DNA from: an uncultured Gammaproteobacteria bacterium | Lineage (GTDB): Bacteria; Patescibacteriota; Microgenomatia; UBA10105; UBA927 | Assembly (NCBI GenBank): GCA_964349125.1 | Contig: CAYGFH010000001.1 | Location: forward strand, 197,408 to 261,407 | Reading direction: 5' to 3' | Length of the DNA: 64,000 bases | Shown here: piece after piece, positions 27,912 to 46,782 of the stretch | How positions within the stretch are numbered: the stretch's first letter is position 1 | Layout: the number at the start of each line of letters is the position of its first letter | Notes under the pieces: generated by a model | Database searches by the model: none | What the model saw: the letters and a program-made list of their open reading frames with translations, nothing else | Told to the model about the DNA's origin: nothing | Position numbers and translations under genes: made by a program

Positions 27912-29474
27912 TTACAGATAGCCCCTATCGTCTAGCGGCCTAGGACGGTGCGTTCTCATCGCACAAATCGCCGGTTCGAATCCGGCTAGGGGTACTAAAT
28001 TTGTTTTAGAAGATGCAACGTCTCCAATTAGAGCAAAAGGAAGGCCTAATTCTGCGGTTCCAATACTTTCATTTTTATAGATAACTCCCTTAGGAAACAT
28101 AAGAGTCTGGAATCTTAACTTATATTCAAAAGGAGCATCAAGCCATATGGTAGCCGCGTTATCAAACAAACTCTCTGAGAGGCTAACAAGATAATCTATA
28201 TTAGTTTCCTCAGATACTGAATCGCTCCTTTCAACTTCCTTAATCACGATTTCCTGATCTAACCTTGACTTTGCTCGTTTGTAATCTTCATCGTCCACTA
28301 CACCATCTAGATTCTTTTGAAGTAGCCGTTCTTTCATTTCTCTGAGCTTAGCCACTTCCTTGGTAACTTTATTTAAAATTGACAGCTTCTCTGACTGTTT
28401 TTGTTTCCATACATCATAAAGAATCTCCTTAAATAGTTTTTTGAAGTCGGAATTAGGCTGTATATCCTTTAGTGTACTGTAGAATATTTCTTCTAGAGTG
28501 TTTTTAGAAATTCTTGTCTTTCCACATAGACAATGATAATAGGCATATCGCTTGTTCCTACCTTTAGACCAACTTCCAGTTAAATATTCACCGCATGCAT
28601 CGCACTTGGCTATATTTTTTAGAGGAAAATCTGGATTTTTTACTAAACGCGGCACTGAAGTAAAGGATTTTCCTTCTCTAACTGCTTTGACGCGGTAAAA
28701 AAGTGCTGGTTCAATTATTTTTTCATGCAAACCTTGCACCTCATCTTTCCATCCTCTTACCTCAATAACGCCCATATACAGTTTATTCCGAAGAATATGA
28801 TCCACAGATTGTGGCGTAAGTTTATTGCCTTTGGCGCTACGTAGTCCCCAACGGTTCATTTTTTGAGCCATATCCTTGAGTGTGTAGCCTGTCTGAGAAT
28901 ATGTCTCAAAAGTTTTTAATATTATTGGTGCTTTAACAGCGTCAATTATTATGCCTGCTGGGGTATTTTTATATCCAATCGGTGCTTTCCATGCCCAAAA
29001 GCCTTGTCTTACCTTTTCCTGAAGACCCCATTTTGTTTTATCTGATCTCGTGTCGTTATCCCATTGAGCTACAGCAGAAAAAATATTTTCAATAAATTTA
29101 CCCGTTGATGTCTCATCTATGTTCTCTGAAACTGATCGTAGAACTACATTAAGCTTACTTAGAACTGCTCGCACCATTTGATGGTCAGCTGTGTTTCTTG
29201 AAAACCGATCTAATCTTTGGACTAGTAGCACATCAATCTTCCCACGGTTCTTATGACAATAATCCAACAGTTTAATGAGTTGCGTCCGATCAGCGGTTTT
29301 CGCGGATTCGCCCTCTTCCCTAAAAACTTGAACAATATTCCATCCTTGCCTCGCGCAGTGTTCACGGCAATATTTTTCTTGCGAGTCTAAACTAAAGCCA
29401 CTAGTTGCCTGTTCCTCTGTGGAAACGCGTGTATATATAAGGGCATTCATAATTTTCTCAGCCTTTTTATCCAT
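27912..29474 (-). CDS. Large serine recombinase (integrase) of integrated element
   Basis: N-terminal resolvase catalytic domain (YTRVSTEEQ catalytic Ser; VQRLDRFSRN), central recombinase domain, zinc ribbon CDACGEYLTG...YYHCLCGK, coiled-coil C-terminus. The last ~27 codons overlap tRNA-Glu on the opposite strand. Confidence 0.9.
   Translation of the reverse strand: MDKKAEKIMNALIYTRVSTEEQATSGFSLDSQEKYCREHCARQGWNIVQVFREEGESAKTADRTQLIKLLDYCHKNRGKIDVLLVQRLDRFSRNTADHQMVRAVLSKLNVVLRSVSENIDETSTGKFIENIFSAVAQWDNDTRSDKTKWGLQEKVRQGFWAWKAPIGYKNTPAGIIIDAVKAPIILKTFETYSQTGYTLKDMAQKMNRWGLRSAKGNKLTPQSVDHILRNKLYMGVIEVRGWKDEVQGLHEKIIEPALFYRVKAVREGKSFTSVPRLVKNPDFPLKNIAKCDACGEYLTGSWSKGRNKRYAYYHCLCGKTRISKNTLEEIFYSTLKDIQPNSDFKKLFKEILYDVWKQKQSEKLSILNKVTKEVAKLREMKERLLQKNLDGVVDDEDYKRAKSRLDQEIVIKEVERSDSVSEETNIDYLVSLSESLFDNAATIWLDAPFEYKLRFQTLMFPKGVIYKNESIGTAELGLPFALIGDVASSKTNLVPLAGFEPAICAMRTHRPRPLDDRGYL
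27921..27994 (+). tRNA. tRNA-Glu (anticodon CUC)
   Basis: Cloverleaf: acceptor GCCCCUA/UAGGGGU, anticodon stem GUGCG/CGCAC with loop UUCUCAU (anticodon CUC), T-arm GCCGG-UUCGAAU-CCGGC; overall close to bacterial tRNA-Glu. CCA is not encoded. Confidence 0.8.
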
Positions 29475-29772
29475 TGTGTCTCCTTAATGGTGCCTTATCA
29501 ATACCTTTAGGTGAATTTTTGGAACCACGTACCACTACTGCCTCTGTAATAATTTCAGCAAGGCCATATAACTTATTTAGCATTTCCTGTAAATCCAAAT
29601 CAGACATGGAGCGGGATCTGCCACCCATTATGTTTCTCGCTTTGTTTAATGAAATCATAAAAGCTCTATTAATTTGTGGCCGGGAGGGGAATCCCAGGCA
29701 CAAACCAATAGAGCTAATAAAAGCCTGATTCCCCTTTTGACCACAAAAAATAGCACCGTTAGAAACACACAT
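29467..29772 (-). CDS. Small hypothetical protein upstream of and translationally coupled to the integrase
   Basis: Stop overlaps the integrase start by 8 nt. No recognisable domain; could be a recombination directionality factor. Weak SD; the start is uncertain (alternative Met gives 63 aa). Confidence 0.3.
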   Translation of the reverse strand: MCVSNGAIFCGQKGNQAFISSIGLCLGFPSRPQINRAFMISLNKARNIMGGRSRSMSDLDLQEMLNKLYGLAEIITEAVVVRGSKNSPKGIDKAPLRRHNG

Positions 29773-29863
29773 TTCATTGTGTTGCTAAAAGTGCCAGTCG
29801 CTTTTCAGCGTGTTAGGCTATTAAATTTTTAATATCCTAATTAAATTGTAAGTAATAATTTTA

Positions 29864-30226
29864 TCAATCGTCAACTTTACCCTTATTAGTAAGAATTGAT
29901 CGTATATCAGCAGATAGTTGTTGTAGTTCTGGAAAATTAATTGAACCAGATACCGGTTGTTTAGGCTTACCGATTACTGTCTCAATAATGAATTGCAGCA
30001 TTCTTTCATCTGGAGGCCTTGTATATACATGCTTTCTTTTACCTTCTATGCGAACGCACACAATCTTTCCAAGAGCTATATCAAGAGAAATATCCGCCAC
30101 GGCTTGCCATTGAGTAAGTAAACGATTCACTAAGATATCTCGCGCTTCTACTTCCATGACTGTTTTTATATTTAGTGCACCTTTTTTTCGTCCGGCACCC
30201 GGTCGCATTCCACCTCGTTGTTTCAT
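29864..30226 (-). CDS. Phage-like DNA-binding protein with N-terminal AT-hook-like GMRPGAGRKKG motif
   Basis: N-terminal basic Gly/Arg/Pro motif common in small phage/mobile-element proteins; no other domain recognised. Confidence 0.5.
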   Translation of the reverse strand: MKQRGGMRPGAGRKKGALNIKTVMEVEARDILVNRLLTQWQAVADISLDIALGKIVCVRIEGKRKHVYTRPPDERMLQFIIETVIGKPKQPVSGSINFPELQQLSADIRSILTNKGKVDD

Positions 30227-30312
30227 AATATTTGATTAAAAATCAATAAAATCAAAACTCTATATTATTATGGTACAGGAAAATTTTATCAGAGGGCAAA
30301 TTAGAGGTATGT

Positions 30313-30525
30313 CTACAGAAGTTCTTTCACGGCAACTCTAAGCACACGTGCAATTCTGTTAAGCACTTCTAACGACGGAGCGTTTCTGCCTTGCTCTATA
30401 TAACCCATATACGCGCGACTAATACCGACTTTTTCTCCAAGTTCTTCTTGAGTTAATCCGGCAGAATTGCGCAACTTCTGTACTTTATGTCCGATCACAC
30501 GGGGTAACTTAGCATTCCTTCTCAT
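30313..30525 (-). CDS. XRE-family (Cro/CI-type) helix-turn-helix transcriptional regulator
   Basis: LRNSAGLTQEELGEKVGISRAYMGYIEQGRNAPSLEVLNRIARVL canonical XRE HTH. Confidence 0.85.
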   Translation of the reverse strand: MRRNAKLPRVIGHKVQKLRNSAGLTQEELGEKVGISRAYMGYIEQGRNAPSLEVLNRIARVLRVAVKELL

Positions 30526-30559
30526 TGCCTAATTGTTGGCCAAATGTCTTACAAGTTAC

Positions 30560-30624
30560 ACTTAGCTACAGTTAGCAATTAGCCTCATATTATGCTTGCA
30601 TTTCTGCTAACTTAGGGTTAGCAT
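30560..30624. promoter_or_regulatory. Divergent promoter/operator region with repeated TTAGC / GCTAA half-sites
   Basis: Three direct TTAGC copies (30562, 30572, 30579) and inverted GCTAA / TTAGG / TTAGC copies (30606-30622) between the XRE gene and the divergent small membrane-protein gene. Confidence 0.45.
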
Positions 30625-30635
30625 AAAGAAGATTT

Positions 30636-30824
30636 ATGATTAAGATTATTCTAGTTGTTATTTTTATTCTCGGTGCACTCTTCTCTAATGCCTCCCAAAT
30701 ACCGGCATGGCTACTAGGTGCCGGCAAGCCTAACGATAAGGAAACACCACATTGGAAAGTTTATGGTGTAATAGCGGCATTTTTGTGGGTCGGCTTATTC
30801 GCTATAGCGAATTTAGCTTTATGA
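30636..30824 (+). CDS. Small two-TM membrane protein divergent from the XRE repressor
   Basis: 62 aa with two hydrophobic helices (ILVVIFILGALFS; VIAAFLWVGLFAIANLAL). Confidence 0.45.
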   Translation: MIKIILVVIFILGALFSNASQIPAWLLGAGKPNDKETPHWKVYGVIAAFLWVGLFAIANLAL

Positions 30825-30933
30825 GTGAGTATGGAAAAGATGATAACCGTACAAGACATAGCACAACTTATTAAGCTTGCTCTATTTGGTAGCAACAAGC
30901 AGCGTGTGTTGGCGGTACGCTTGCTTTGCTTGC

Positions 30934-31386
30934 TTAGATAATGTTGTGTACGTTTGAAGCTTCTAAGGGCATTGTACGGAGCATAACGCCTATTTCTTTA
31001 ACAACGGCATCTGCAAATTCAGCCTTGTGAGCATTATCCTTGAGTATTACTCGCTTCACTCCACGTTTTTGGGCTTGTTTATTATATTCCGGAACGGATG
31101 ATATAGAGATTACTTTATCCGGGCCGAATTTCTCAATGTTAAGTATGTGAAACGAGCCACCGAGCTTACAATCACGATCAAGTAGGATTATGTCAAACTG
31201 AATGCTTTTGTTATCGTTAATTAAATTCTCTACCTGTACATGATTTGTAAGCACAATGGTAGACAGATCATAAGGTTGGTCACCCTCAAGGTCCGCGAGA
31301 CGTTCAAGAATAAGAGAAAGCGTTTTGAGATCGTCTTCTAATATAAGAATAGTTTTGTGTAAGACCATACTTGCAGTATACTCCAA
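30934..31386 (-). CDS. Standalone CheY-like response regulator receiver domain protein
   Basis: ILILEDD acidic pair, ILLDRD phospho-acceptor Asp, ISISS Thr/Ser position, KRVILKD Lys position. No output domain. The likely start is the MVLHK Met. Confidence 0.65.
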   Translation of the reverse strand: MEYTASMVLHKTILILEDDLKTLSLILERLADLEGDQPYDLSTIVLTNHVQVENLINDNKSIQFDIILLDRDCKLGGSFHILNIEKFGPDKVISISSVPEYNKQAQKRGVKRVILKDNAHKAEFADAVVKEIGVMLRTMPLEASNVHNII

Positions 31387-31440
31387 CTGTAAACGGGCAT
31401 TTACCGTTGTATCAAGCCCGAAAGTTAATATTTAAGCAAC

Positions 31441-32124
31441 ATGAAAACCATCAACATTACAAGCGTCTTTTTGTTATTGATACTCATTCTTCTTTTAATG
31501 ATTTTGGAGTTCCAATCAAATAATAAAGAAGTTGTTTTGCCAATCGTTATTCAACTTTATGGTGGTTTTGTAGCGGTACTAGTGGGTGTCTACATTCCGC
31601 TGGCAGAGGCTAAGAAAAAAGAAAGGCAAGAAGAACGTAGGCGCATGATTGCTTCTCTAAAACTCATCTGGTCAGAGCTTGATATAAACGAAATTGTGAT
31701 GAGAAATATACTTCTAGGCCTTCAAACAATGCCAAGAAAAATTGACCAGATGTATGATAGCGTTTTATTCGTACTTAATGTGGCAAAAGACCTAAGAACA
31801 GAGGCTTACTATGGTGCTATCTCGTCAGCCACAATAATGACAATTAGCGAATCTGATGCAATATTTAACTCGCTGCAGCAAGCCTACTACAATATGCAAC
31901 TAACAGAAAGCGGCCTGAGCATGACGGCAGATGTATATAAAGAATATTACCAAAAAAATCTAGCTACTATCCCACAAGAATTCAAGGCACAGGTACTGGA
32001 TATTCATGATAAAGAAATAAAAAAGTGTGTAAGCGCGATTACATTCATCGCTACGGCTAAAAAAATAAGCGGAGCATATCTTTCTAAAACGGGCGTTACT
32101 TTTTCCCAAGGCGCTTATATATAA
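31441..32124 (+). CDS. Hypothetical membrane protein (two N-terminal TM helices plus cytoplasmic helical domain), first gene of the OLD cassette
   Basis: TM1 VFLLLILILLLMIL, TM2 VAVLVGVYIPLA, then a charged KKKERQEERRR region and an alpha-helical domain. Confidence 0.5.
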   Translation: MKTINITSVFLLLILILLLMILEFQSNNKEVVLPIVIQLYGGFVAVLVGVYIPLAEAKKKERQEERRRMIASLKLIWSELDINEIVMRNILLGLQTMPRKIDQMYDSVLFVLNVAKDLRTEAYYGAISSATIMTISESDAIFNSLQQAYYNMQLTESGLSMTADVYKEYYQKNLATIPQEFKAQVLDIHDKEIKKCVSAITFIATAKKISGAYLSKTGVTFSQGAYI

Positions 32125-32186
32125 CGGAATTTGCACGCATGTAATTCCGAGGCCGGTGTATAATCATATAAAGATTAATAATACCT

Positions 32187-34205
32187 ATGATATTAAAAAG
32201 TACCCAATTAATAAACGTAAAAAGCTACTATCCTGACTCTACTATCAACTTTGAGAGCGATATAAATATATTTGTTGGTCCGAATGCCGGTGGCAAAAGC
32301 AATCTATTTGAAATTTTACAAGGGGTTATAAATACTATCCTTTTAAAACACGTTACTCTTCAGCAGAATCCGGCTTGGAACGATATCAATAATCCTGAAA
32401 GAAATAAACCCTTCAAGCTAGATTTTGATAATGTGGACCAAAATAATTTGAAGTTGCATATTTTTGACAAGCATTTTAAACATACTACTGAGCCTCAAAC
32501 TATTTATATATCTCTTGAGTTAACAACTGAGGACGTAAAACAAATTAGCTATATCCTTTCTATAAGGGATATAATCATTGCAAAATTGGAAAAAGATGTT
32601 GTTAACTCTCTTCCTTTAACCACTCTGCTTAAATCAATACCCATTGATATCCACTTTGGGGACTTTGTTAACAAGACTGTAAAGTTAATGGTTAATTCAG
32701 AAAATTCATTTACGATAATGATAAGTGATTATGCTGGATATAGCCCAGAACAACAAGCCAGACTTAATATGTTATTTGAATTAATACAGTACAGGAATGT
32801 CTTTCATGAAATTTCCCTTATATCTTTAACACCTGACATCCACCCTGCTAGTAGGTATTTCGGTCCACACAGAACTCTAAATCAAGTTAGAGATGATATT
32901 AATGTAGATTTGAGCTCTGCTGGAAATCTTGAAGATAATTACGCTAAGGACATAAACCAATTTACTGATAATACACGTTCCTTTATTGACTCATCGTTTA
33001 ATAAATTATGTTACCTTTTTAAATCTGGCAACACACATCTACTTGATAGATATAAAGAGTACTTGAGTAAATATCTCAAGGTCAACTTAAATATAAGTCA
33101 AATTGAGCATCCTACCAAGTTTTTATACAGAGTTAACTTCACACGACAATCTGGTACACCCTTAAGACTAAGCTCAGGTGAGAAAGAGTTCTTTAATCTT
33201 ATTAGTGGATTAATCCTATCGGAGCTCAAAGATGGGATTGTGTTTATAGATGAGCCCGAACTTCATCTCCACTTTCAATGGCAACAGGTTATTCTAAATT
33301 TAATTAAGGACTTGTCGCAGGATTTTAATATACAGTTTCTTATCGTTACACATTCTCCAAAATTTATTAATCAAGAAACGTTACCCAAAATATTTAGGGT
33401 GTATATGGGCAATGAATTGTCTAGTTGTATAGTTAAACCTGAGAATCCTTTAAACGGTGCCGACGCTAAAGATTTAATTAAACTCATCAATACAACGAAC
33501 AATGAAAAGGCATTTTTTACTCAAAAAGTAGTTCTAGTTGAAGGTGTATCTGATCTGATTGTCTATTCAAATATACTTCATAAGTTAAAAGATGATGCTC
33601 ATTCTGAAATAGAGATAGAGGTTATTGAAGTAGCAAGTAAAGGCAATCTATTAAAATTTAGAAATCTGCTGACAGAATGGAAAATTGATAATTACATTAT
33701 TGCAGATTTAGGTTACTTGAAAGATGTTAGACGTGATAAAGAACATATGATTCATGAGGAAGAAACAAAGGCAAAATTTGTTAGTTTGAATGATCAGATC
33801 AACAGTCTTGTTCTCTTTTCAGAAGAGGAGCTTAAAAATATCCTATGTAGAAATCCCGGCGAAGATGCAAACACCATTGTGAACTTAATAAGAGATAAAG
33901 AAACATTGGGTAATGATGAATTTACTAAAAGATTATTAACTCTTTGTAACTACATCCGAACACAGCGTGCTATTAAACTTAACCCCCACGCATCCTTTAG
34001 TATACAGCTCGTGGAGCTACTAACAGACTTAGCAGAAAAAGAAAAAATCCTTATACTTAGGGAGGGGAATTTGGAAGATTTATTTAAGCCTCTTAAGACA
34101 GCGGGTAATAAAGTCACTAACGCTATAAGACTAACGAATGGGATTACACTTACTGATATCCCCGAATATTTAAAAACTTATCTAAGGAATATCTTAACAG
34201 CATAA
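32187..34205 (+). CDS. OLD-family ATP-dependent nuclease-like protein (ABC-type ATPase plus C-terminal Toprim domain)
   Basis: Walker A FVGPNAGGKSNLFEIL, ABC signature LSSGEKEFFNL, Walker B IVFIDEPELHLH, H-loop IVTHSP. The C-terminus has a VVLVEGVSDLIVYS Toprim-like glutamate and downstream IIADLG acidic motif, as in P2 Old / GajA-type proteins. Confidence 0.8.
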   Translation: MILKSTQLINVKSYYPDSTINFESDINIFVGPNAGGKSNLFEILQGVINTILLKHVTLQQNPAWNDINNPERNKPFKLDFDNVDQNNLKLHIFDKHFKHTTEPQTIYISLELTTEDVKQISYILSIRDIIIAKLEKDVVNSLPLTTLLKSIPIDIHFGDFVNKTVKLMVNSENSFTIMISDYAGYSPEQQARLNMLFELIQYRNVFHEISLISLTPDIHPASRYFGPHRTLNQVRDDINVDLSSAGNLEDNYAKDINQFTDNTRSFIDSSFNKLCYLFKSGNTHLLDRYKEYLSKYLKVNLNISQIEHPTKFLYRVNFTRQSGTPLRLSSGEKEFFNLISGLILSELKDGIVFIDEPELHLHFQWQQVILNLIKDLSQDFNIQFLIVTHSPKFINQETLPKIFRVYMGNELSSCIVKPENPLNGADAKDLIKLINTTNNEKAFFTQKVVLVEGVSDLIVYSNILHKLKDDAHSEIEIEVIEVASKGNLLKFRNLLTEWKIDNYIIADLGYLKDVRRDKEHMIHEEETKAKFVSLNDQINSLVLFSEEELKNILCRNPGEDANTIVNLIRDKETLGNDEFTKRLLTLCNYIRTQRAIKLNPHASFSIQLVELLTDLAEKEKILILREGNLEDLFKPLKTAGNKVTNAIRLTNGITLTDIPEYLKTYLRNILTA

Positions 34206-34264
34206 GTTCTAACATTGTTGTTAATATTAGTTAAGCTGTTATAATTGGATGCCTGCCAAATTGT

Positions 34265-34948
34265 ATGAAAATTAATTGGCTGGCGGGTCTATTCATAGGT
34301 TGCCTTCTTACATTGCTTGTGCTGGGCTTTAATACCCCATTGTTGCCCAAATTCCAAATTCAATATACCCTTCAAGGCTCGCAATCTGATTGGTTATCGG
34401 CGATTGGAACACTTTTTGCGACAATTACAGCTTTAGTAATAGCTATTTGGGGAAAAAGCCTTCGCAAATTATCGTTCTGGTCGGACATACGCATAATAGA
34501 TTCGCAAGTAAACTTCCAACCATCTAAAGAAGGACGCGGAGGTTATGTAAGGTTCTTGTTTAAAAATTATGGCAATGATACAGCTGAAGATGTTGAAGTT
34601 TATATAGACCACATACAAGATAACGATTCAGATCGTCTTAATTTTTTGCCAGTTCCACTTAGATGGACACATGACGGTCGGTCAAAAAGGAGCTTCCATC
34701 CAAATCAGTATGGGTATTTAGATTTTTGCAATGTTCATGATATTGGAAACAGATCAGATGGGGCGCATTTTACTTTAGCTGCCGGATCTGGAGTCCCTAG
34801 CTATGAACAAATAGCAACAGGCAAATCTCAACTACACCTAATAATTTTTCAAAAATCTGGTCAAATAAAAAAATACAATGTAAATATTAGTTATAATATA
34901 AGCGATAAAGTTCCCAATATTACAAATATTGCGGAAACTATTAATTAA
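34265..34948 (+). CDS. Hypothetical membrane protein (two N-terminal TM helices plus beta-rich domain)
   Basis: TM1 LAGLFIGCLLTLLVLGF, TM2 IGTLFATITALVIAIW; no recognised domain. 59 nt downstream of the OLD-family gene. Confidence 0.5.
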   Translation: MKINWLAGLFIGCLLTLLVLGFNTPLLPKFQIQYTLQGSQSDWLSAIGTLFATITALVIAIWGKSLRKLSFWSDIRIIDSQVNFQPSKEGRGGYVRFLFKNYGNDTAEDVEVYIDHIQDNDSDRLNFLPVPLRWTHDGRSKRSFHPNQYGYLDFCNVHDIGNRSDGAHFTLAAGSGVPSYEQIATGKSQLHLIIFQKSGQIKKYNVNISYNISDKVPNITNIAETIN

Positions 34949-35455
34949 TTGACTATGGATGAAAAATTAAAAGAGAGTCTACGACATATCCAAACGCATC
35001 CAACAACCGGGTTACCTCATAACCAACAACTTATTACTACACAAATTGAATCTATTTTCATGCTTGATAGTCTAGGTGAAAAAATTGATCAATTAAATAA
35101 AACACTTGTTGATTCAGGAAAAATTAATCAAGGACTTGAACAATCAAATTACCGCCTTCAGTGGGCAATGTTGATACTTACTGCCATAGCTACATTTACG
35201 GTTATTTATCCCATCCTTAAAGGATATTTTGTCAGCCTTTTTGTTGTAAACGCGTTTGGATTTTCTGTAACCGCGGCTACGACTGGCTTAATTGCTGCAC
35301 TTGTATCGGGATTGGTAGCAGGAGCATTACTTGGTCTTGCCAAAAGGAGCTTAAATAAGATGGTATTCACGAATTTAGGCGATCAAATTAAAATACGCGA
35401 TAGTGTTAATATCGTATTAAAAGATAAGGACGGGAATATTAAAGAAGCGAGATGA
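34949..35455 (+). CDS. Hypothetical protein with N-terminal coiled coil and C-terminal TM helices
   Basis: Directly abuts the previous gene. Hydrophobic C-terminal half (WAMLILTAIATFTVIYPIL...LIAALVSGLVAGALLGLA). The start is probably the ATG at 34955. Confidence 0.5.
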   Translation: MTMDEKLKESLRHIQTHPTTGLPHNQQLITTQIESIFMLDSLGEKIDQLNKTLVDSGKINQGLEQSNYRLQWAMLILTAIATFTVIYPILKGYFVSLFVVNAFGFSVTAATTGLIAALVSGLVAGALLGLAKRSLNKMVFTNLGDQIKIRDSVNIVLKDKDGNIKEAR

Positions 35456-35505
35456 CATAGCTAACGGCACTTTTATTTAATAGAAGAATATAATTTACCC
35501 ATAGA

Positions 35506-36027
35506 TCACCAGGATGAGACTAATTTTACTAGTTCTTCCCTCGTTCTATTTATTTCATCTTCTAGTTGTTTATATAATTCTTTTGGCATGACATCCGATG
35601 TTCTCATTTGCCACGCATACAAATAATATTTAAGTTTTATACTCACTGTATTGTTAACTTTTTGAAGTTTATTTGCTACAAAAGCAATATGCTCGGAATC
35701 ACGAGGTGGTGATTGGAAGAAGGCCTGTTCGCCTTCAGCGCAGAATTTTAAAACTTCTTCACCTAAATTACTTTTCGTAATAGCGGAATTTCTACGTTTT
35801 TCAAAAAAATATCCTATTAGTTTCTCAACTATCTTATACAACATTGTAAAACCACCAGCTCCACCTGCTGAACCGACTAAAATTGTCGTATACAATTGAG
35901 TCTGACTTATAACAATTGTATTATTTACAGAATTAACAAATAAAGCTGTGGCTGTAGCGTCTGACATATATATAGAGCAGTTTACTGCAAAACTAGTGGC
36001 TGATCCATAGGCTATGTGCTGTATCAA
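35506..36027 (-). CDS. Hypothetical protein (island cargo)
   Basis: 173-aa ORF with a Gly-rich motif SAGGAGGF; no recognised domain. Confidence 0.4.
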   Translation of the reverse strand: MIQHIAYGSATSFAVNCSIYMSDATATALFVNSVNNTIVISQTQLYTTILVGSAGGAGGFTMLYKIVEKLIGYFFEKRRNSAITKSNLGEEVLKFCAEGEQAFFQSPPRDSEHIAFVANKLQKVNNTVSIKLKYYLYAWQMRTSDVMPKELYKQLEDEINRTREELVKLVSSW

Positions 36028-36228
36028 CGTTATAAATATTAATTCTAATACACTATGGCAGTCTTAACTGTGAATGGATGGAGGCTATTAGAAATGGAGC
36101 TACTCCACTGCCTAAATGAAAACAGAAGCTGGTTCCATTGAGAAATCATCTGGGGTACAAGCAAAAAGACAAGGCTAAATGCCTGGTTTTTTGTTTGTAT
36201 TCTCTTAAGTATTGAACCGTCCGAAGGA

Positions 36229-36281
36229 TCGGTTCGGAGCGCCCGTATACCTCGGCGTTGTTACTCATCCGGCTAGGGGGA
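36229..36281 (+). repeat. Degenerate duplicate of the tRNA-Glu 3' end (putative distal att site of the island)
   Basis: GGTTCG...ATCCGGCTAGGGG matches tRNA positions 27973-27992; 13-nt exact core. Confidence 0.5.
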
Positions 36282-36295
36282 CATACAGAAAAAAT

Positions 36296-36919
36296 CTAAA
36301 TAAATTTTAGCGTTGAGAGAATGGAATCAAACAGCTCGAAATCTTGCACTCCTGGCTGTTTTTCAAAATCATAATACACGCCGATTGATAGTGGGTTTTC
36401 TTCATCGGGGTAATCAATTTTGACGTCATATATTTTTTTGTTTGCTTCTCGCAATTCGCATCTTATTACCTCTTTGTTAGAAATCCGTATTACTTTCCCT
36501 CCACTAACAACTGTTGAACAGTCATACGGGTCTGATCCGCCATAACCGAAAACACTTTTCCTCCTAGTGATTATCATTGAATTCCTCTCCCCTGTTTTTT
36601 CTGTAATTCTAAGTTTTAGCCACCCGTCTGGCTCAACAGTCTCGATAGCGATGACAATTTCAGGAATTATCATTGAAATGCCAAGTTCAGTGTTGGAATA
36701 CGTGCCTGAAGAAATATTCCTAGGTTTCGGGCTTGGAGTTGCAGAAGGCTGAAATAACACCGTGCCATTTGGCGGAAGGTTTACAAATTGCACTTCACGC
36801 TTTTGTTCATAACTATTTATCCGGAAATATAAATATAAAATAAAAAATAATATTCCGAATAAGATGGTTAACAATACAAACGTTGAGTTTATTTGAATCA
36901 GAATCTTTTTCTTTTTCAT
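36296..36919 (-). CDS. Hypothetical membrane-anchored protein
   Basis: Start placed at MKKKKIL; N-terminal TM FVLLTILFGILFFILYLY, then a Pro/Ser-rich linker and a globular domain. Confidence 0.45.
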   Translation of the reverse strand: MKKKKILIQINSTFVLLTILFGILFFILYLYFRINSYEQKREVQFVNLPPNGTVLFQPSATPSPKPRNISSGTYSNTELGISMIIPEIVIAIETVEPDGWLKLRITEKTGERNSMIITRRKSVFGYGGSDPYDCSTVVSGGKVIRISNKEVIRCELREANKKIYDVKIDYPDEENPLSIGVYYDFEKQPGVQDFELFDSILSTLKFI

Positions 36920-37006
36920 ATATATCCTTTTAAGGATAACATAAAAATTCTTCCGATTCCCCCAAATGGGGTACAAGTAAAAAATTATATGGTAAACTGA
37001 TTCCAT

Positions 37007-37456
37007 ATGGGCGAAGAAATTTCAAAAGAGATACAAACGCTGGCACAAATCCTTCCGCCTCAATCTGAGTCGGAGCTTGCGGAACATTTTCAAAAATCAC
37101 AATGGTTGATCGAACAAATTCTAGAACTGAAGCCGTATGATATTAAAGCAGCTGGAACTGTCGATGGTGCTTTCATGCTAGCAGCAAGGCTTCATGCAGA
37201 GAAGTTAGACCCAACTAATCTGATAAATGCGACTGAAACAGATAACGCTCTAGGGGTTATCCTTGTCCGTGCAATTAATCCGACAGCTGGAGAAGATAAT
37301 CATATACAAGGAGCAGTATTTTGTAGAAATCCCAATAGCCCTCAGGATGAATATGATAAACAATTTAAAGATTTCATGGGATTGGTGGAGGGATTTCTAA
37401 ATAGTCCTATTTATCAGAGGCATCCTCAGGATGGGCAGCATAAACTATCGGAATAG
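37007..37456 (+). CDS. Hypothetical protein
   Basis: 149-aa ORF divergent from the previous gene; no recognised domain. Confidence 0.4.
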   Translation: MGEEISKEIQTLAQILPPQSESELAEHFQKSQWLIEQILELKPYDIKAAGTVDGAFMLAARLHAEKLDPTNLINATETDNALGVILVRAINPTAGEDNHIQGAVFCRNPNSPQDEYDKQFKDFMGLVEGFLNSPIYQRHPQDGQHKLSE

Positions 37457-37630
37457 AAAATTTATCCGAAATAGTATTTAGAATAGATAATTTTTGATTA
37501 AATACGTTCCAATTTCGTCCAAAAAAAGGCTAGCAAATTACCTTGAATTTCAAAAAGTCTTAGAATATCTGGGAAAGCCTAGCGTGCTAGCTATCTTACA
37601 CTGGATTAGTGTAGGTAATTCTCAGAATCT

Positions 37631-38626
37631 TTATGGCACGAAGATATCGTGATCCTGACTAAAGAAATTCCCTTTCACAACATGGTTTCCGCCGACCACG
37701 TGGATATTTCCCAGCATTTGACCCGCCACTAACCCATATCGGGCAGTCGGCATATCGGCTCTCCGATACCACTTATCCTCTTTGGTTTTGTACTCGTACA
37801 CTTCAGGTGATACTGTATCTCCATTTGCGCCACCAAAAATAAAAATGCTTTCTCCTTTGACAACTGCTGCAAATCCGCTTATAGCATGTGGAAGAGACGC
37901 ACGCGGTGTCCAGGTATCTGTGTATGGATCGTACATCTCATTAGTGTTTAACGCATGAAATCTGTCTTTGATCAACCCTCCAAGTGCATATATTTTCCCA
38001 TCAACCGTCACCACGGACAAATGTTCTCTCGCGCTTGGCATCGACGTTTTGGTAACCCAGACGTCTTTTTTTGTATCATATGCGTGAAGCAAAGTCACTT
38101 GATTTGCATTTCCGGAATCTCCACCAACTGCATAAATAGTTTCCTCATGGCAAGTCACACCGAGCGCACCGCGTCCAACGGGTATATCTGCCCGTTTAAT
38201 CCATTCATCCGATGAAGCGTTATATTTGTATACGTATGAAGAAGGCAAGACACGAATCCAATACCCCCCGACAACGTAGAGATCATCTCCACAAGAAACA
38301 ACCCCAGGGTGGTGTATTACGCGCGGATAACTGGCTATATGTATCCATTCTTCTTTTACGGGATCGTATGCGTCTACACGATCTGTTGGTGTCCATGGAG
38401 TAGATAAGACCAACCCACCAACGATGTATAGTTTTCCCCCAGCAACTGCAGCACCAAAATCGTATCGCTGAGTTGGCAAATCTTTTGCTTTTTTCCAAGA
38501 ACCGGCGGAGGTAGTAATTTCGAGATTTGAACTTGTAAACACTCGTTGCGGTTTGTCGCGCATATCCACGAAGAATGCGATAATCAACATGGGTATCAAC
38601 AAAATTTGGCGCACCAAGACATCCAT
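37631..38626 (-). CDS. Kelch-repeat beta-propeller protein with N-terminal TM anchor
   Basis: Repeated Kelch motifs (GG..YVVGG, YKYN..DEW, AVGGDSG, ALGG) following an N-terminal hydrophobic helix. Confidence 0.8.
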   Translation of the reverse strand: MDVLVRQILLIPMLIIAFFVDMRDKPQRVFTSSNLEITTSAGSWKKAKDLPTQRYDFGAAVAGGKLYIVGGLVLSTPWTPTDRVDAYDPVKEEWIHIASYPRVIHHPGVVSCGDDLYVVGGYWIRVLPSSYVYKYNASSDEWIKRADIPVGRGALGVTCHEETIYAVGGDSGNANQVTLLHAYDTKKDVWVTKTSMPSAREHLSVVTVDGKIYALGGLIKDRFHALNTNEMYDPYTDTWTPRASLPHAISGFAAVVKGESIFIFGGANGDTVSPEVYEYKTKEDKWYRRADMPTARYGLVAGQMLGNIHVVGGNHVVKGNFFSQDHDIFVP

Positions 38627-38907
38627 ACCTATACTATACTCGAAACTTTATCATGCCACCACTGCCTGTATAGGCAAATCGCCACCGTCACCAAACTATA
38701 CATTCTTAAACTGCATAAAAAGAGTATCACTTCGGCGTTTTTGAAACGTATCTGGTTGCCTAGCCAATTTGCTACGCGCGTATGTAAATCTCATAATATG
38801 TATTCGTGTACATAAGAGAAGTTCCAATTGACTTCGGAAGAATTCTTATTCACAGTATTTTTAGACTGTCCGTATGCGAAGTGTAATCTTTTTGTTAAAA
38901 ACCGTAT

Positions 38908-41319
38908 TTACGAAGATGCCAGTTCACACCCTTCCCTATTCCATTTCCAATTCCGTATCTCCGGCATATCCACCCCATGGATTTCTATATACCGTCGATG
39001 TTCTGCAAGCTTATCTTCCAGCATGCGTTTCAATTCTTTTCCTTTTTCTCCCGTCTTTGGAAAACGGTTAATGACATCCATTGCTAAATGGAACCGGTCC
39101 ATATCATTGAGAACAGTCATATCAAACGCGGTGGTGATAGTACCCTCTTCTTTATACCCACGAACGTGGATGTTTCTATTAACCCGTTGATATGTGAGAC
39201 GGTGAATAAGCCACGGGTATCCATGGAACGCCCAAATAATATGTTTGTCTCTGGTAAATATCTCATCATATTTTTGTTGGGTGAGACCATGCGGATTTTC
39301 GGTATCTGTCTCAAGCCTCATCAGATCCACTACGTTGACGACACGGATTTTCAGTTCCGGTAAATATTTGCGCAGTATAGAAACGGCTGCGAGGGTCTCG
39401 ATGGTTGGAATATCGCCCGCACAGGCCATAACAACATCAGTATCCCCTTCTTCATCATTACTTGCCCACGCCCACCGATCAATACCCTTTGTACAATGCT
39501 CAGTCGCATCCTGCATATTGAGGAATTGAGGCGCTTCGTGTTTTCCACAGACAACCAGGTTCACATATCCCAGACTCCGCAGACAATGATCCGCTACTGA
39601 AAGTAAACAATTTGCATCCGGGGGAAGATACACTCTAATGATTGAAGATTTTTTGTTTACCAAATGATCGATAAAACCCGGATCCTGGTGGGTAAACCCG
39701 TTATGATCCTGTCGCCAAACATGGGATGTGAGGAGAAAATTCAGTGATGATATTTTTTTCCTCCACGGGACTTCACTTGATAGTTTTAACCATTTTGCGT
39801 GCTGGGTGACCATAGAATCCACTATCCTGATAAACGCCTCATAGCTATGAAATATACCGTGTCTGCCTGTGAGCAGGTAACCTTCCAGCCAGCCTTCACA
39901 CTGATGTTCACTGAGCATTGAGTCGATGACTAGACCCTCCGGAGACAAAAATTCATCATATTTTTTGATCGTACTATTCCATTGTCTGTTAGTCACTTCA
40001 AAGATTGATTCCAGCCGGTTTGAGAGTGCCTCATCAGGTCCAAATATACGAAAATTTCTGTGCTGTTTATTAAGCTGTATTACATCCCGTAAGAATTTCC
40101 CAAGCACATGAAAGTTACCCTTATTCACTTGTGTTGGGCCGGGCACCTCAACCGCATAATCCTGAAAGTTTGGAACATGGAGGGGTTTTAGAAGTAACCC
40201 TGCGTTTGTGTGAGGGTTGGATCCCATTCGTCGCGCCCCGGTGGGAGCGAGTGCCGCTATTTCCGGTTTCAGGCGTCCCTGATCATCAAACAATTCTTCA
40301 GGTTTATAGCTTTTCATCCACGATTCCAGTATGGCTAAATGATCGGCGGGAGCACCCTCAGATACGGAGAGTGGCACCTGATGAGAACGGAATGTTCCCT
40401 CTATCGGTTGGGTATCTATTTCTTTTGGTCCGGTCCAGCCTTTTGGAGAATTAAACACAATCATTGGCCAACGTGGTCTCGTAGTATCATTATTTTCCCT
40501 GGCATTGCGGTGAATCTCATGTATATCTGTAAGCACTTGATCCAGAGCCGCCGCCATATCCTGATGCATTTGGTTTGGGTCATCTCCTTCGACAAAATAT
40601 GGTGCCCACCCATATCCGCGCATCAGCTGTTCCAGTTCTTCGTGAGAAATGCGTGAGAGGATTGTCGGATTGCTGATTTTATATCCGTTCAGATGCAAAA
40701 TCGGGAGTACCACGCCATCAGTTTTCGGGTTCAGGAATTTGTTGGAGTGCCAGGATGTCGCAAGCGGCCCTGTCTCCGCCTCGCCATCCCCTATGACGCA
40801 CGCCACGATGAGGTCAGGATTATCAAATGCCGCACCGAAAGCATGGCTGAGCGAATACCCAAGTTCTCCACCCTCATGGATGGATCCCGGAATCTGCGGT
40901 GATACATGGCTGGATATACCGCCGGGGAATGAGAACTGTTGAAACAATTTTTTCATTCCTGCTTCATCCTGTGTGATGGTGGGATACATGTCTGTATATG
41001 AGCCTTCCAGATACACATTGCTGACTATTGCCGGGGCTCCATGGCCGGGTCCGGATATATATATCATGTCAAGATCATGGTGTTTGATAATTCTATTTAG
41101 GTGCGCATAAATAAAGCTTTGCCCCGGTGTTGTTCCCCAATGACCTAGTAGGATTTTTTTGACGTCTCCGATTGAGAGTGGTCTCTTCAGTAGTGGATTA
41201 TCGTGCAGATATATCTGCCCCACTGCCAAATAATTGGCCGCACGCCAGTACGCATCTATCTGTTTTAACTGATCAGGTGATAGCGGCGCTGTAGTCTCGT
41301 TTGGCAAGTCTGTTTCCAT
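38908..41319 (-). CDS. xfp: Xylulose-5-phosphate/fructose-6-phosphate phosphoketolase
   Basis: 803 aa. TPP-binding motifs ([15 protein letters not shown]...[36 protein letters not shown]) characteristic of Xfp. Confidence 0.95.
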
Positions 41320-41330
41320 AAATATTTTTT

Positions 41331-42518
41331 TCAGTGTAGTTTTGCCAGTACATCCATTGTCTGTTTTGCGATGATCAGTTCTTCATTTACATGAACGATC
41401 CGCACCTGTACTCTACCTGTCTGTGATGAAATCATATCTTCATTCGCCTGATTCTTCGCCTCATCCAACTGTATACCTAAAAACTGTAACTTTTCGCAAA
41501 TTCGGGAACGTATCTGGCTTGCCCTCTCACCGATGCCGCCGGTAAAGACAAGCATATCTATACCACCCATTGCTGCCGCATATGCCCCGATATATTTTTT
41601 CACCTGGTAACAAAACACATCGAGCGCATCCTTTGCCCGCTGATCTGTTTTTTCATGCTCCAACAATTCGTGTACATTGGCGCTGATTTCCGACATGCCA
41701 AGAAGTCCTGACTCAAAATTAACCATAGCATGTATCGCCGTAACATCATACCCGGCACTCTGTGAGAGGTACGGTAAAATTCCCGGATCGATATCTCCAG
41801 ATCTCGTTCCCATAGGGATACCTGCCACAGGAGTAAAGCACATACTGGTGTCTATTGATTTTCCATCGACTATAGCAGCCAGACTGGCTCCGCTACCCAG
41901 ATGTGCGAAGACAAATTTACCCCTTGCGGCATCAACACCTACCGATTGCTGTATCTGTTCCAAAACAGAGGTAAAGGAGAGTCCGTGAAACCCATATCGT
42001 CGTACACCTAGTGCATCGAATTTCCTAGGAATCGGGAGCAGTCGGGCAACGGTCGGCATGTCATGATGGAACGCGGTGTCAAAACACGCAACATGGGAAA
42101 CTGTGGGGAATCGTGTACGAAATGATTCTATGAGTTGGATAACCTGAGGCATATGATCGGGATCAAGCTGGGTAATCGATCGCAGATATTCAACCAGTTC
42201 ATCGGTAATACCCGTCGGTTCACTATATTTCATACCTCCATGTATGACACGGTACCCAATACTCACCATAGTTTCCCCATGGACTTGTGATCGTATCCAC
42301 TCACTAAACAATTGCACAGACGATGATATATCCGGTGACTCGATATTTTTTTTAAAATCATCGGCGCCATCGGCGTATGTTGCCCAAAATACACCATTGG
42401 GCTGTCCGATATTTTCAATGGCACCCCGAAACACAACAGCAATCGCATCATTTTTTTCAAATAACGCAAACTTAATGCTTGATGAGCCACCGTTAATTGT
42501 CAAGATATGTTGAGCCAT
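41331..42518 (-). CDS. ackA: Acetate kinase
   Basis: [17 protein letters not shown]-terminus, [23 protein letters not shown] motifs. Confidence 0.95.
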
Positions 42519-42827
42519 AGTATGAAGCTGTTTTCATGATATACCCATCTTACTTCGGTTTGCAACCGCGAAGCGGTGAAAAAGCGGATTAGATGGGTCT
42601 ATACTGAGTAACCAACGAGAAGAATGAGTTACGTTGGTATACAACCATAAAGTGTACAGAAGCAAGGATAGTGTACGTTGCATACATAAATCTGGTAAAT
42701 TCGAACATTTGTGTGTATACTACTCCCATATGAACGATGACGGTTTGCCATACGAACGTTTGTTCACCCCTTAACCACAAGCAGGGCATATCACCCCTTG
42801 TGAAAAGAGGGTGAACCACAAGATGCC
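42519..42827. promoter_or_regulatory. Structured divergent intergenic region (ackA / DUF1003 gene) with candidate SD-sequestering hairpin and alternative pairings
   Basis: CACCCC...GGGUG hairpin covers the SD-like GAGGGUGA just upstream of the plus-strand start. CUUGUG can pair with either of two ACCACAAG copies. A 7-bp stem CCCAUCU/AGAUGGG lies near the ackA side. Confidence 0.3.
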
Positions 42828-43265: not shown

Positions 43266-43327
43266 CGTGTATATGCACCGTGGGAAGCGTAGTGACAATC
43301 AATACAACTCTACATACCTATTTTCAT

Positions 43328-43951: not shown

Positions 43952-44327
43952 TAGCACGTGAAATATAAATCCGACCCGTTGTGAGTATCACGATTCGCAT
44001 GGCTGAATCCTATAATCTATTTTACATAAATAAAATTCGAATCAAGTGATCTTCTGCAATCGGGATAGACGGGACTCATATAGAGACAATTATTTCAGAA
44101 ATCGGTGTATACCCTGTCAAGGATCCGAATTTTTTACTTGCCGTACACACAAGGAATACATAGAAAAGTATTTCTGATCCTCTATCAGTATTTCGCCATG
44201 GTGGAATTATTATTGTTATATATTTTTCTTCAATTGTATATGTGTATTCTTCATGATATGAATATATGGATAATCAAAGAAAAATCATAGAGTGTGATAG
44301 AGGACGTTGAGTAAATATGCGATATGT

Positions 44328-45095: not shown

Positions 45096-45133
45096 TATAA
45101 TTCGGACAAGTTAAAAATGGCCAACGCACCACT

Positions 45134-46761: not shown

Positions 46762-46782
46762 TCAATCGAAAGATTGGTATGT

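Follow-up and report, generated by a model that had tools for sequence, protein, structure and literature searches.

A large serine recombinase that probably carries attP inside its own gene, in a tRNA-inserted element of a candidate-phyla-radiation genome

The archaeal 'suicidal' tyrosine integrases of SSV1, pTN3 and pT26-2 carry attP in the integrase gene and target tRNA genes, and the gene is partitioned, giving a compact int+att module (PMC8371274). In the mycobacteriophages BPs and Brujita, known for integration-dependent immunity (Broussard et al. 2013), a phage gene has attP within its 3' end, and the 3' end of a tRNA gene overlaps attB; on integration the protein encoded by this phage gene exchanges its C-terminal tail and so behaves differently (PMC9262239). 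According to a 2020 paper, no serine integrase (S-Int) had been reported to use a t(m)RNA gene (PMC7192596), and the largest survey of large serine recombinases (LSRs) nowhere mentions tRNA (PMC10083194). In the literature we found no description, for bacterial or serine integrases, of an integrase gene that spans the recombination site and swaps its tail. The design reported here is common to relatives in many phyla and is apparently undescribed for such integrases.

The window (the whole 64-kb stretch of DNA that was analyzed) comes from a candidate-phyla-radiation (CPR) genome (Patescibacteria, Gottesmanbacteria-like). Good support exists for a predicted integrative element of 8,163 bp (27996-36158) inserted right at the 3' terminus of tRNA-Glu(CTC) (Table 1). 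The LSR ORF (27912-29474, minus strand, 520 aa) contains Resolvase, Recombinase and Zn_ribbon_recom domains (PF00239, 1e-33; PF07508, 4e-15; PF13408). It has 1644 homologues, its catalytic-region residues do not vary across an alignment of 42 sequences, and among solved structures it is matched best by the catalytic domain of TP901-1 and the C-terminal domain of A118. The preliminary description placed an LSR-borne integrative element at this tRNA, with the integrase ORF running about 80 nt into the opposite-strand tRNA gene; the tRNA/ORF overlap, the LSR domains and the junction bear this out. The ORF passes antisense through the entire tRNA gene and 9 nt beyond it, an overlap of 84 nt in all, and its last residues are indeed read from the strand opposite the tRNA. 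However, this C-terminus had been taken as the integrase's own end, and it appears instead to be a by-product of integration, with the native, conserved C-terminus encoded at the opposite end.

Table 1. Features of the element and its borders (window coordinates)
Feature	Position	Strand	Description	Source
tRNA-Glu(CTC)	27921..27995	+	host target gene, attB B-arm; intact post-integration	ARAGORN; Rfam RF00005 (57.5 bits)
Integration-generated extension	27912..27988	-	25 codons + stop (LAGFEPAICAMRTHRPRPLDDRGYL), antisense to tRNA; non-native integrase sequence	
attL core GGGGTAC	27989..27995		tRNA acceptor 3' strand + discriminator + next base	
Integrase body	27989..29474	-	495 native codons; catalytic, recombinase, zinc-ribbon/coiled-coil domains; ends …SSKTNLVP	
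53-aa ORF	29467..29628	-	directly upstream of integrase, overlaps its start; conserved partner, candidate regulator or RDF	
120-aa ORF	29864..30226	-	N-terminus basic, Gly/Arg-rich; putative 'AT-hook protein' of the preliminary description	
XRE-family HTH regulator	30313..30525	-	PF13560, PF01381 at ~1e-15	Pfam
Three unannotated ORFs	30636..32124		62-aa membrane (+), 150-aa (-), 227-aa membrane (+)	
OLD-family ABC-type ATPase + TOPRIM nuclease	32187..34205	+	672 aa; AAA_21, AAA_15, OLD-like_TOPRIM	Pfam
Three unannotated ORFs	34265..36027		227 aa (+), 168 aa membrane (+), 173 aa (-)	
Detached integrase tail exon	36045..36152	-	35 codons + stop (QMISQWNQLLFSFRQWSSSISNSLHPFTVKTAIVY); in frame with body once cores joined	
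attR core GGGGTAC	36152..36158		distal end of 8,163-bp element; same 7-mer as attL	
Fossil unit outside element	36159..36282		terminator-like hairpin + fossil tail exon of L086-type LSR + second tRNA 3'-end copy incl. 13-mer	

Splicing the integrase across the GGGGTAC core yields a 530-aa ORF whose last 35 residues (…LVPQMISQWNQLLFSFRQW…) come from the detached exon. This tail aligns to P0007, P0015, P0038, P0039 and P0070, and it matches the C-termini of relatives that have no tRNA-derived tail, one of them on a circularly assembled 12.1-kb contig. When the P0007 tail was searched against the whole window (tblastn), the single best match ran from 36152 to 36069 (E=2.7e-5) and started exactly at the core. 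A tail HMM that excluded the window sequence and was dominated by acidobacterial tails matched the window exon weakly (E=1.2), yet this was its best match in the window. Because the tail of the spliced ORF matches the native C-termini of relatives, attP probably lies inside the integrase gene, and a swap of the native tail for 25 tRNA-antisense residues on integration is well supported.

Relatives show the gene in its contiguous form. The contig L095 (12,166 nt) has ends identical over 29 nt, and its circularity is based on this overlap, which a tandem repeat could also give. Its integrase, 62% identical to that of the window, continues without a break over the same GTACCCC core and tail. The nucleotide alignment of the window tail exon with this uninterrupted 3' end crosses the junction, and in the first 20 tail codons four synonymous changes keep the residues. 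L179 has the same contiguous junction, and in the tandem array L177 the tail is of the WNQ type in the outer integrase and derived from the tRNA in the one next to the tRNA.

The 7-bp core by itself is not significant, and the case for the boundary is made by the adjoining tail exon and by comparative data. Strain L086, whose GreA is 98% identical, shows homology with the window that stops exactly at 27995, and the stretch 3' of its tRNA is homologous to 36159-36282, although sister-strain flanks have diverged (~83% identity) and a strictly isogenic empty site was not found. Downstream of the attR core, an A-run, a hairpin and a T-run follow in the same order as directly 3' of the tRNA in L086 and L176; in L176 this terminator hairpin is immediately 3' of the tRNA with no integrase there. 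In L092, likewise with no integrase there, the 13 nt between the tRNA and the contig end resemble the window attR flank. The crossover must fall within the core at 27989-27995. Every contig with an identical GreA is occupied; junction searches of JGI metagenomes found neither attP nor empty-attB junctions of the window element, and gave no support for its excision at the read or contig level. L086, L088 and L176, all of which lack the element, have an identical tRNA-Glu sequence, G1-U72 pair included. Since the tRNA is unchanged in element-free strains and the identical shared core is only 7 bp, the element does not supply the tRNA 3' end in any meaningful way, contrary to the earlier proposal. 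The GC content of the element is 0.362 against 0.459-0.466 in the left flank and stays low (0.379) to ~37500, so that the sharp fall described between the two sites stands relative to the left flank, but the right end shows no abrupt change.

The same arrangement recurs widely. An opposite-strand tRNA lies at the integrase 3' end in 64 of 80 related genome loci, from Acidobacteriota to CPR (Glu 24, Ala 21, Lys 15), and the tRNA/integrase reading phase is constant in 58 of these 64. tRNA targeting by a serine recombinase, previously noted as uncommon, is thus the rule in a large multi-phylum LSR clade. Tails of the form G[FVIL]E[PSL], which correspond to the antisense translation of the tRNA T-loop, occur in 99 of the 120 closest homologues. 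Family cores of 5-17 nt, starting at the tRNA 3' end, were found in 27 loci, and splicing over 11-17-nt tRNA-end repeats gave SWNQ…WL…L tails in 10-11 loci. All 48 tail-HMM matches to tail exons lie upstream of the integrase on its strand, and the 607 kb downstream of integrases and the opposite strand gave none. The elements are inferred to span 3.6-10.1 kb. Some acidobacterial tails end in …RRAA or …QVAA. It is therefore well supported that the attP-in-integrase anatomy extends across a large LSR clade, whose predicted targets are tRNA-Glu, tRNA-Ala, tRNA-Lys and occasionally others.

We regard as very probable the overall anatomy of a tRNA-inserted element with attP inside its integrase gene, and propose the following mechanism for it. 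The LSR would have inserted the element by means of an attP located in the 3'-terminal part of its own gene; Int would bind this ~50-bp attP, which would also encode a flexible linker of the protein, and the crossover dinucleotide would lie inside GGGGTAC. Recombination there would part the 495-codon body, beside the tRNA, from the last 35 codons, now 8.1 kb away. The body would be fused to the tRNA antisense strand, giving a 520-aa protein in which a 25-residue tRNA-derived tail replaces the conserved WNQ-containing C-terminal helix, and excision would rebuild the 530-aa gene. In the AF2 model of P0007, a linker (475-490, pLDDT <50) is followed by a helix (489-506), which is of low confidence (pLDDT about 50-58). 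We infer that the tail swap may alter the activity or stability of Int between the free and integrated states, and would thus act as a built-in integration-state sensor. The conserved 53-aa upstream ORF may aid excision; it was called as a gene in L001 and L091, was found upstream of the integrase in L006, L007, L094 and L095 (tblastn), and had no family match in Pfam, PHROGs or NCBIfam.

The same anatomy could instead reflect one-way integration, as in the archaeal SSV-type 'suicidal' integrases, with an essential tail, an inactive 520-aa form and an element trapped unless a related free element provides full-length Int. We consider this possible, although on the unlikely side. It is consistent with tail conservation down to ~35% identity, the accumulation of fossil tail exons and remnants at these tRNAs, the occupation of all contigs of this strain and the archaeal precedent (PMC8371274). 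However, nearly all of 74 complete loci have an intact integrase-body ORF, and the loss concerns the last 35 of 530 residues, past all recognised LSR domains. Moreover, locus content varies among strains with 98-100% identical GreA, which points to turnover.

It is also conceivable, although we find it doubtful, that the swap is functionally neutral, the tail being conserved as an attP arm at the DNA level or being a dispensable appendage, and the overlap existing because a compact int-attP module mobilises easily. The WNQ motif, only 4-6 codons away from the core, is close enough to fall in an LSR attP half-site, but the W..W/L..L..L amphipathic pattern extends 15-25 codons (45-75 nt) from the core, past a ~25-bp half-site, and the conserved tail pattern tolerates synonymous and conservative changes. 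Neutrality would fit the poor modelling of the tail and the wide variation in its length and C-terminal sequence.

A further question concerns the 13-mer ATCCGGCTAGGGG, which was described as a copy of the tRNA 3' end with an upstream GGTTCG. This repeat exists: it is exact at 27980-27992 and 36267-36279, CGGTTCG lies ~30 nt upstream of the distal copy, and a 12-mer of it has just two exact copies in the whole 64 kb. Its interpretation as a decayed distal att site does not hold, as the true junction is GGGGTAC at 36152-36158 and the 13-mer falls in a fossil unit seen in L086. The segment 36159-36282, whose hairpin folds at -13.4 kcal/mol, is homologous to the ~125 nt separating tRNA-Glu and int_L086, and in L086 the unit is directly 3' of the tRNA and abuts a different LSR. 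Since the unit is also present in this sister strain, the 13-mer match is not due to chance; by this comparison, it is part of an older fossil that the two strains share. An element spanning the tRNA to the 13-mer, which would supply the tRNA 3' end and whose attP-form integrase would end …LVPLAG right after the core, is very improbable. Although this exact repeat occurs nowhere else in the window, and joining at it puts TGA immediately past the core (read off the sequences), the 13-mer and its 55-nt upstream unit adjoin the tRNA in element-free L086 and there complete the ORF of a different LSR. In addition, that boundary is 115 nt beyond the conserved tail exon, which abuts another core copy, and family cores begin at the tRNA 3' end, whereas the 13-mer starts 3 nt in.

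As for gene content, Pfam, PHROGs and NCBIfam revealed no replication, structural or transfer genes in the element, in agreement with the preliminary description, and the LSR is accompanied by the XRE regulator, the OLD-family gene and unannotated small or membrane ORFs. The related elements L094 and L095 also have XRE homologues. The sole match of the 120-aa ORF was weak (PHROG 15261, E=0.002), and both groups of three unannotated ORFs had no matches in Pfam, PADLOC, PHROG or NCBIfam. The 672-aa protein matched Old (1e-26), AriA (8e-24), GajA (4e-20) and AriAB (5e-20) in PADLOC and, under its cut-off, the retron Eco8-type effector in NCBIfam (4e-14). It shares with P2 Old, GajA of Gabija and AriA/AriB of PARIS an ABC-type ATPase followed by TOPRIM; Pfam and PADLOC found no GajB-like helicase or separate AriB partner in the element. 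This cargo resembles an Old-like system of one gene with unannotated membrane ORFs on either side, and is likely an anti-phage nuclease that may repay carriage of the element. The earlier view of a small element with defence-type cargo, rather than a prophage, fits its size, the OLD-family gene and the lack of detected phage genes. A decayed prophage or phage satellite, to which the low GC, the XRE repressor-like gene and the edge position of the integrase might point, is hardly credible, given that ten of the element's ORFs lack PHROG matches save one weak, function-unknown match, the integrase is just 25-33% identical to its closest IMG/VR relatives, family elements are uniformly 3.6-10 kb, and the circular relative L095 has no capsid or terminase domains.

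Compared with known systems, the window LSR has the same domain order (resolvase catalytic, recombinase, zinc ribbon with a long coiled coil) as the large serine integrases phiC31, Bxb1, A118/LI, TP901-1, CcrB and XisF, and shares with them a short att core and an integrase gene beside attP. However, those enzymes target protein-coding or intergenic sites, whereas the window family targets tRNA, and its attP is placed within the integrase ORF, with exchange of the C-terminus on integration. The phiRSM-type small serine recombinase of Askora et al. 2011 reportedly integrates at tRNA-Ser. It resembles the window LSR in being of the serine family and in using a tRNA 3' end as attB, but it is a small, resolvase-like enzyme of a filamentous phage without the Recombinase and zinc-ribbon domains, both of which the window family has. 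With the SSV1, pTN3 and pT26-2 integrases, the window LSR shares attP within int, a tRNA target and gene partitioning; those are archaeal tyrosine integrases, whereas this is a bacterial serine recombinase that would lose ~35 end residues and gain a tRNA-antisense tail. In BPs and Brujita, it is the repressor gene that is split, the integrase is of the tyrosine type and the lost tail is a proven ssrA-like degron, whereas in the window the integrase gene itself is split.

The integrase reading frame runs antisense across the entire tRNA-Glu gene, with its stop codon 9 nt past the tRNA 5' end. This overlap, reported in the preliminary description, was confirmed by ARAGORN, Rfam, the reading frame and its Pfam domains. 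The catalytic domain (PF00239, 1.1e-33) covers residues 11-158, and Y14, R16, S18, Q22, R63, R90 and R93 are invariant in an alignment of 42 sequences; a Recombinase domain (PF07508, 4e-15) lies C-terminal to it. The zinc ribbon (PF13408, 5.8e-4) fell under its gathering score, yet its Cys residues are invariant in the 42 sequences. An AF2 model of an integrase homologue has long helices at 333-412 and resembles the C-terminal domain of A118 integrase (4kis). Judged by its domains, the window protein is predicted to be a large serine recombinase (LSR). The 13-mer reported earlier, ATCCGGCTAGGGG, was also found, exact at 27980-27992 and 36267-36279, and a 12-mer within it has only two exact copies in the window. 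The reported drop in GC content holds between the junctions (0.362 versus 0.46 in the left flank), but it does not end with the element, since low GC (0.379) persists to ~37500. Given the overlap, the repeat and the GC values, the original observation at this tRNA is real.

Coordinates of the tRNA gene, the integrase and other features at the locus
Feature	Position	Strand	Remarks
tRNA-Glu(CTC)	27921-27995	+	ARAGORN, sole tRNA in 64 kb; Rfam 57.5 bits
Integrase ORF, 520 aa	27912-29474	minus	Resolvase, Recombinase, Zn_ribbon_recom domains
XRE regulator	30313-30525		intact, ~2.3 kb from attL
OLD-family ATPase-TOPRIM, 672 aa	32187-34205		PADLOC Old 1e-26, AriA 8e-24, GajA 4e-20
Fossil unit outside the element	36159-36282		A-run, hairpin, T-run, 55-nt tail-exon remnant, second copy of tRNA 3' end

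The last 7 nt of the tRNA, GGGGTAC (27989-27995), are repeated at 36152-36158, so that the same core stands at both ends of an interval that is absent from related genomes. These two sites, attL and attR, are putative products of attP×attB recombination. When the core copies are joined, a 530-aa ORF results that ends …KTNLVPQMISQWNQLLFSFRQWSSSISNSLHPFTVKTAIVY* with its stop at 36045-36047, and its tail aligns with those of homologous integrases that have no tRNA-derived tails, namely P0007 (…KTNLVPQMILHWNQLLSNLRAWSNLL…), P0015, P0038, P0039 and P0070. The joining predicts …AAATTTAGTACCCCAGATGATTTC… as the attP junction and …GGCTAGGGGTACAAGCAAAAAGAC… as the empty attB junction. A tail HMM built without the window sequence gave the window exon a weak score (E=1.2), because acidobacterial tails dominate the profile; it was replaced for the window by a direct comparison with the tail of the closest relative, P0007. 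Searched against the whole window with tblastn, this 33-aa tail gave one clear match (36152→36069, minus, E=2.7e-5), which begins exactly at the core. It is well supported computationally that attP lies within codons ~490-505 of the integrase gene, and that the last 35 codons are cut off from it when the element integrates at the tRNA 3' end. In other words, the att site lies inside the integrase gene, which is partitioned on integration. The C-terminal overlap then takes on a different meaning from the one first given to it: residues antisense to the tRNA, which had been read as the end of the integrase, replace a conserved tail that splicing at the core restores.

We also compared related strains, using GreA identity as a measure of their closeness to the host, which by its named GreA homologues is a Patescibacteria/Gottesmanbacteria-like organism. 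Contig L086 (GreA 98%) is collinear with the window through the left flank to exactly 27995, and past the tRNA it carries a different island, with an LSR 27% identical to the window integrase. Its tRNA and LSR are separated by ~125 nt consisting of an A-run, a hairpin, a T-run, a 55-nt segment and a second ATCCGGCTAGGGGTAC, to which window 36159-36282 is homologous. Therefore, the window insertion lies exactly between GGGGTAC and that unit. The distal att site had been placed at the 13-mer, which in fact belongs to the pre-existing unit, as in L086; the real junction is 36152-36158. The 13-mer as attR, with an attP ORF ending LVPLAG*, is rejected on the L086 comparison and the tail exon. The proposal that the element supplies the tRNA 3' end also failed, given that the compared strains have the same tRNA, G1-U72 pair included; G1-U72 is native in all of them and is ruled out as an integration scar. 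This wobble pair stands at the top of the acceptor stem in tRNA-Glu(CTC) of the window, L086, L088, L089 and L176. CCA is unencoded in the tRNA-Glu(CTC) of most strains and encoded in L089.

The L086 unit encodes the C-terminal codons of the L086 integrase, int_L086 (…PSRMNNSAENFEG…), and by our own translation the window copy reads …PSRMSNNAEV… in the same frame. The window unit is therefore a fossil tail exon left by an older element of another type. Because the unit completes the ORF of so distant an LSR, a second LSR lineage also seems to be of split-gene design. Beyond it, 36283-37500 (GC 0.379) holds two unannotated ORFs of 236 aa (minus) and 149 aa (plus), which had matches only in same-strain contigs and none in related genomes; this segment is probably a relic of an earlier island inserted at that tRNA.

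Among contigs encoding an identical GreA, there was no empty site, every one being occupied. Where GreA is 97-99% identical, the site is occupied in L091, differently occupied in L086 and L088, and short or empty-like in L092 and L176. L176 (97%) has a terminator-like hairpin directly after the tRNA and no integrase in the 437 nt past it, and in L092 (99%) the tRNA is followed by AAACGAAAAA, the contig ending 13 nt past the tRNA. Since the flanks of the compared strains have diverged, the sites in L086, L176 and L092 are not isogenic empty sites. Past the hairpin in L176, ~40-190 nt downstream of tRNA-Glu, there are tRNA-like fragments, TGGTTGGATTTGAACC (opposite strand) and AATCCGGCTAAGATCAC, that look like further decayed att relics. 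In L088 (98%), the site at this tRNA is taken up by a 5.6-kb block (4077-9691, against window 28003-46440) that contains a 744-aa DNA methylase and unannotated ORFs and no integrase, and joins directly to the equivalent of window 46440-50526. This arrangement indicates that window 28-46 kb, including the Kelch and phosphoketolase genes and their neighbours, varies between close strains. Assemblies of the same element from two other samples (L002/L005 and L091) break just before the 53-aa ORF next to the integrase, their contigs ending 398-680 nt from the integrase on its upstream side; the cargo side may differ among co-occurring strains, with the integrase module constant.

The database holds 1644 homologues of the integrase. 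Among the 120 closest, which are 36-100% identical, 99 have tails of the form …LV/LA-x3-G[FVIL]E[PSL]…; here G[FVI]EP is the tRNA T-loop GGTTCGAANCC translated antisense, and LV comes from reading CCA and the discriminator base in antisense. More than 540 relatives were confirmed among species-representative genomes. We examined 80 loci from such genomes (Acidobacteriota, Verrucomicrobiota, Myxococcota, Nitrospira, Eisenbacteria and bins resembling the candidate phyla radiation, CPR), with integrases 34-63% identical to that of the window. An opposite-strand tRNA overlaps the integrase 3' end at 64 of them (Glu 24, Ala 21, Lys 15, and one each of Leu, Arg, Asn and Val), and the reading phase of the integrase relative to the tRNA end is constant in 58 of these 64. 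Six of the 80 loci are cut by a contig end, and most of the other 10 have tRNA-fragment tails.

At least 11 loci have an 11-17-nt direct repeat from the tRNA 3' end, the second copy lying 4-11 kb upstream of the integrase, and splicing over it swaps the tRNA-derived residues for a conserved peptide, (S/T)WN(Q/R/P)(L/I/V)xxWL+xLxxL+. Gene callers report the integrated form, so that the 99 proteins end …GFEP/GIEP… and lack this WNQ helix. The exact-repeat search (at least 11 nt) missed many distal sites; repeat matches at L009, L054, L061 and L085 were rejected as chance. A profile of 17 tails was run against six-frame translations of the 80 loci with a cut-off of E<0.05. It gave 48 matches, all 48 upstream of the integrase and on its strand; the 607 kb downstream had none, and neither had the opposite strand at any of the 80 loci. 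At 27 loci, the elements are 3.6-10.1 kb in size, as measured from the tRNA to the nearest tail exon, and the attL/attR identity blocks are 5-17 nt long, nearly all beginning within a few nt of the tRNA 3' end; the predicted 7-bp core of the window fits these blocks. The element is best classed as a tRNA-targeting LSR integrative element with a self-interrupted integrase gene, a design common to a large clade.

A free form is suggested by L095 (Logan, SRR22000240), a 12,166-nt contig whose first 29 nt equal its last 29 nt, as in a circle. In its integrase, P0007 (62% identical), the GTACCCC core and the tail follow without a break, and the reconstructed attP junction of the window aligns with L095 nucleotides across the join; L179 has the same contiguous junction. 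No excised circular form of the window element itself was found among the strain contigs, in exact-pattern scans of JGI metagenome contigs (0 matches for the attP junction and 0 for the empty attB junction) or with the reconstructed C-terminal 111 aa as protein query, which retrieved a single uninformative fragment, P0241. Locus L177 contains two elements in series, with a WNQ tail on the outer integrase (P0038) and a tRNA-antisense tail on the tRNA-proximal one (P0041), as expected if the distal exon of the inner element completes the outer integrase. Several loci have two to four fossil tail exons upstream of the active integrase. Canonical LSRs are not known to recombine attP with attL, a reaction that would account for tandem arrays. 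Tandem arrays at one tRNA or tail-exon fossils were seen at L177 (10001-21566), L036, L067, L073, L028, L065, L070 and L076.

The earlier view of the element as a minimal integrative defence island rather than a prophage is supported by its OLD-family cargo, by the lack of phage hallmarks (capsid, terminase, portal, tail, primase) in searches of Pfam, PHROGs and NCBIfam, and by the absence of the integrase clade from IMG/VR, in which the best match is ~30-33% identical. Gabija (GajA+GajB) and PARIS (AriA+AriB) share the ATPase-TOPRIM protein with the element but pair it with a partner, a UvrD-like helicase or a separate TOPRIM protein, whereas in the element no neighbouring ORF matched GajB or AriB models. 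The protein is best described as a putative Old-like system of a single protein, or as one of fused AriAB-like type. The start of the integrase is overlapped by the 53-aa ORF, which is conserved in this upstream position in L006, L007, L094 and L095, and the other ORFs had no matches in Pfam, PADLOC, PHROGs or NCBIfam. In L089 (GreA 89%; 335-2756), a 489-aa LSR at the same tRNA-Glu adjoins a rolling-circle initiator (Rep, PF23343), so that some family members may be integrating plasmids; a GIY-YIG gene lies between its tRNA and greA. L095 carries a 588-aa reverse-transcriptase-like protein (weak RVT_1 match), a Y-family polymerase (IMS) as well as SRAP. L177 and L178 also have IMS together with SRAP, which may be a recurring cargo module.

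What the exchange of tails does was considered in three ways: as a state-dependent switch of activity or stability, as one-way 'suicidal' integration, and as a neutral by-product of a compact int-att module. Conservation of the tail extends from CPR bacteria to Acidobacteriota and goes along with synonymous and conservative substitutions, which makes selection on the protein likely. In the AF2 model of P0007, a disordered linker (475-490, pLDDT below 50) is followed by an amphipathic helix at 489-506, modelled with low confidence. The att DNA would encode this linker, a segment that could tolerate having to match a tRNA end. We tentatively put forward, as a possibility that we rate below even, that this multi-phylum clade, with its tRNA attB, its attP inside its own gene and its tail exchange, senses integration through a switch of directionality or stability. 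In this reading, the placement of attP inside the coding sequence would mean that the conserved C-terminal helix is present only in the free element. Several reconstructed acidobacterial tails (L036, L042, L076, L023, L073) end …RRAA, …QVAA, …AAVA or …RLA, resembling ssrA-like degrons; CPR tails, including that of the window, have no such ending.

A coherent and abundant LSR clade targets tRNA genes, a class of target that is new for LSRs. Every genome has tRNA 3' ends, which are short and conserved; this makes them attractive for integrase-based engineering, and the self-interrupted integrase offers a natural system for studying how LSR directionality or stability can be coupled to integration state. 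If the reading of the clade given above is true, most of its database sequences end in a spurious tRNA-antisense C-terminus and are missing the genuine one. Enzymes synthesised from database entries would be tested with the wrong C-terminus. Mobile elements are poorly known in CPR bacteria, in which minimal defence-carrying elements of 4-10 kb and serial integration at one tRNA are now documented. In open-access papers and preprints, tRNA targets are treated as the preserve of tyrosine integrases. Mageeney et al. 2020 (PMC7192596) placed 14 of 297 S-Int islands at t(m)RNA genes, and the largest LSR survey (Durrant et al. 2022, PMC10083194) does not mention tRNA.

The archaeal 'suicidal' integrases of the SSV type share with the window element an att site inside the integrase gene and the partitioning of that gene. 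However, they have a tyrosine fold (Phage_integr_3, PF16795), whereas the window integrase has only serine-recombinase Pfam domains; judged by these domains, it resembles the SSV type in logic and is no member of it. In the integration-dependent immunity of mycobacteriophages, attP lies in the repressor gene and a degron is removed on integration (PMC9262239). There the repressor is split and the removed tail is an ssrA-like degron, whereas in the window the integrase is split, the XRE gene is intact and the tail (…TAIVY) is not ssrA-like. If the reading as a switch is true, the system would be a serine, bacterial counterpart of both. We found no description of this integrase clade in open-access papers and preprints, and it appears to be the first example, both outside archaea and within the serine family, of a recombinase that interrupts its own gene through the reaction it carries out.
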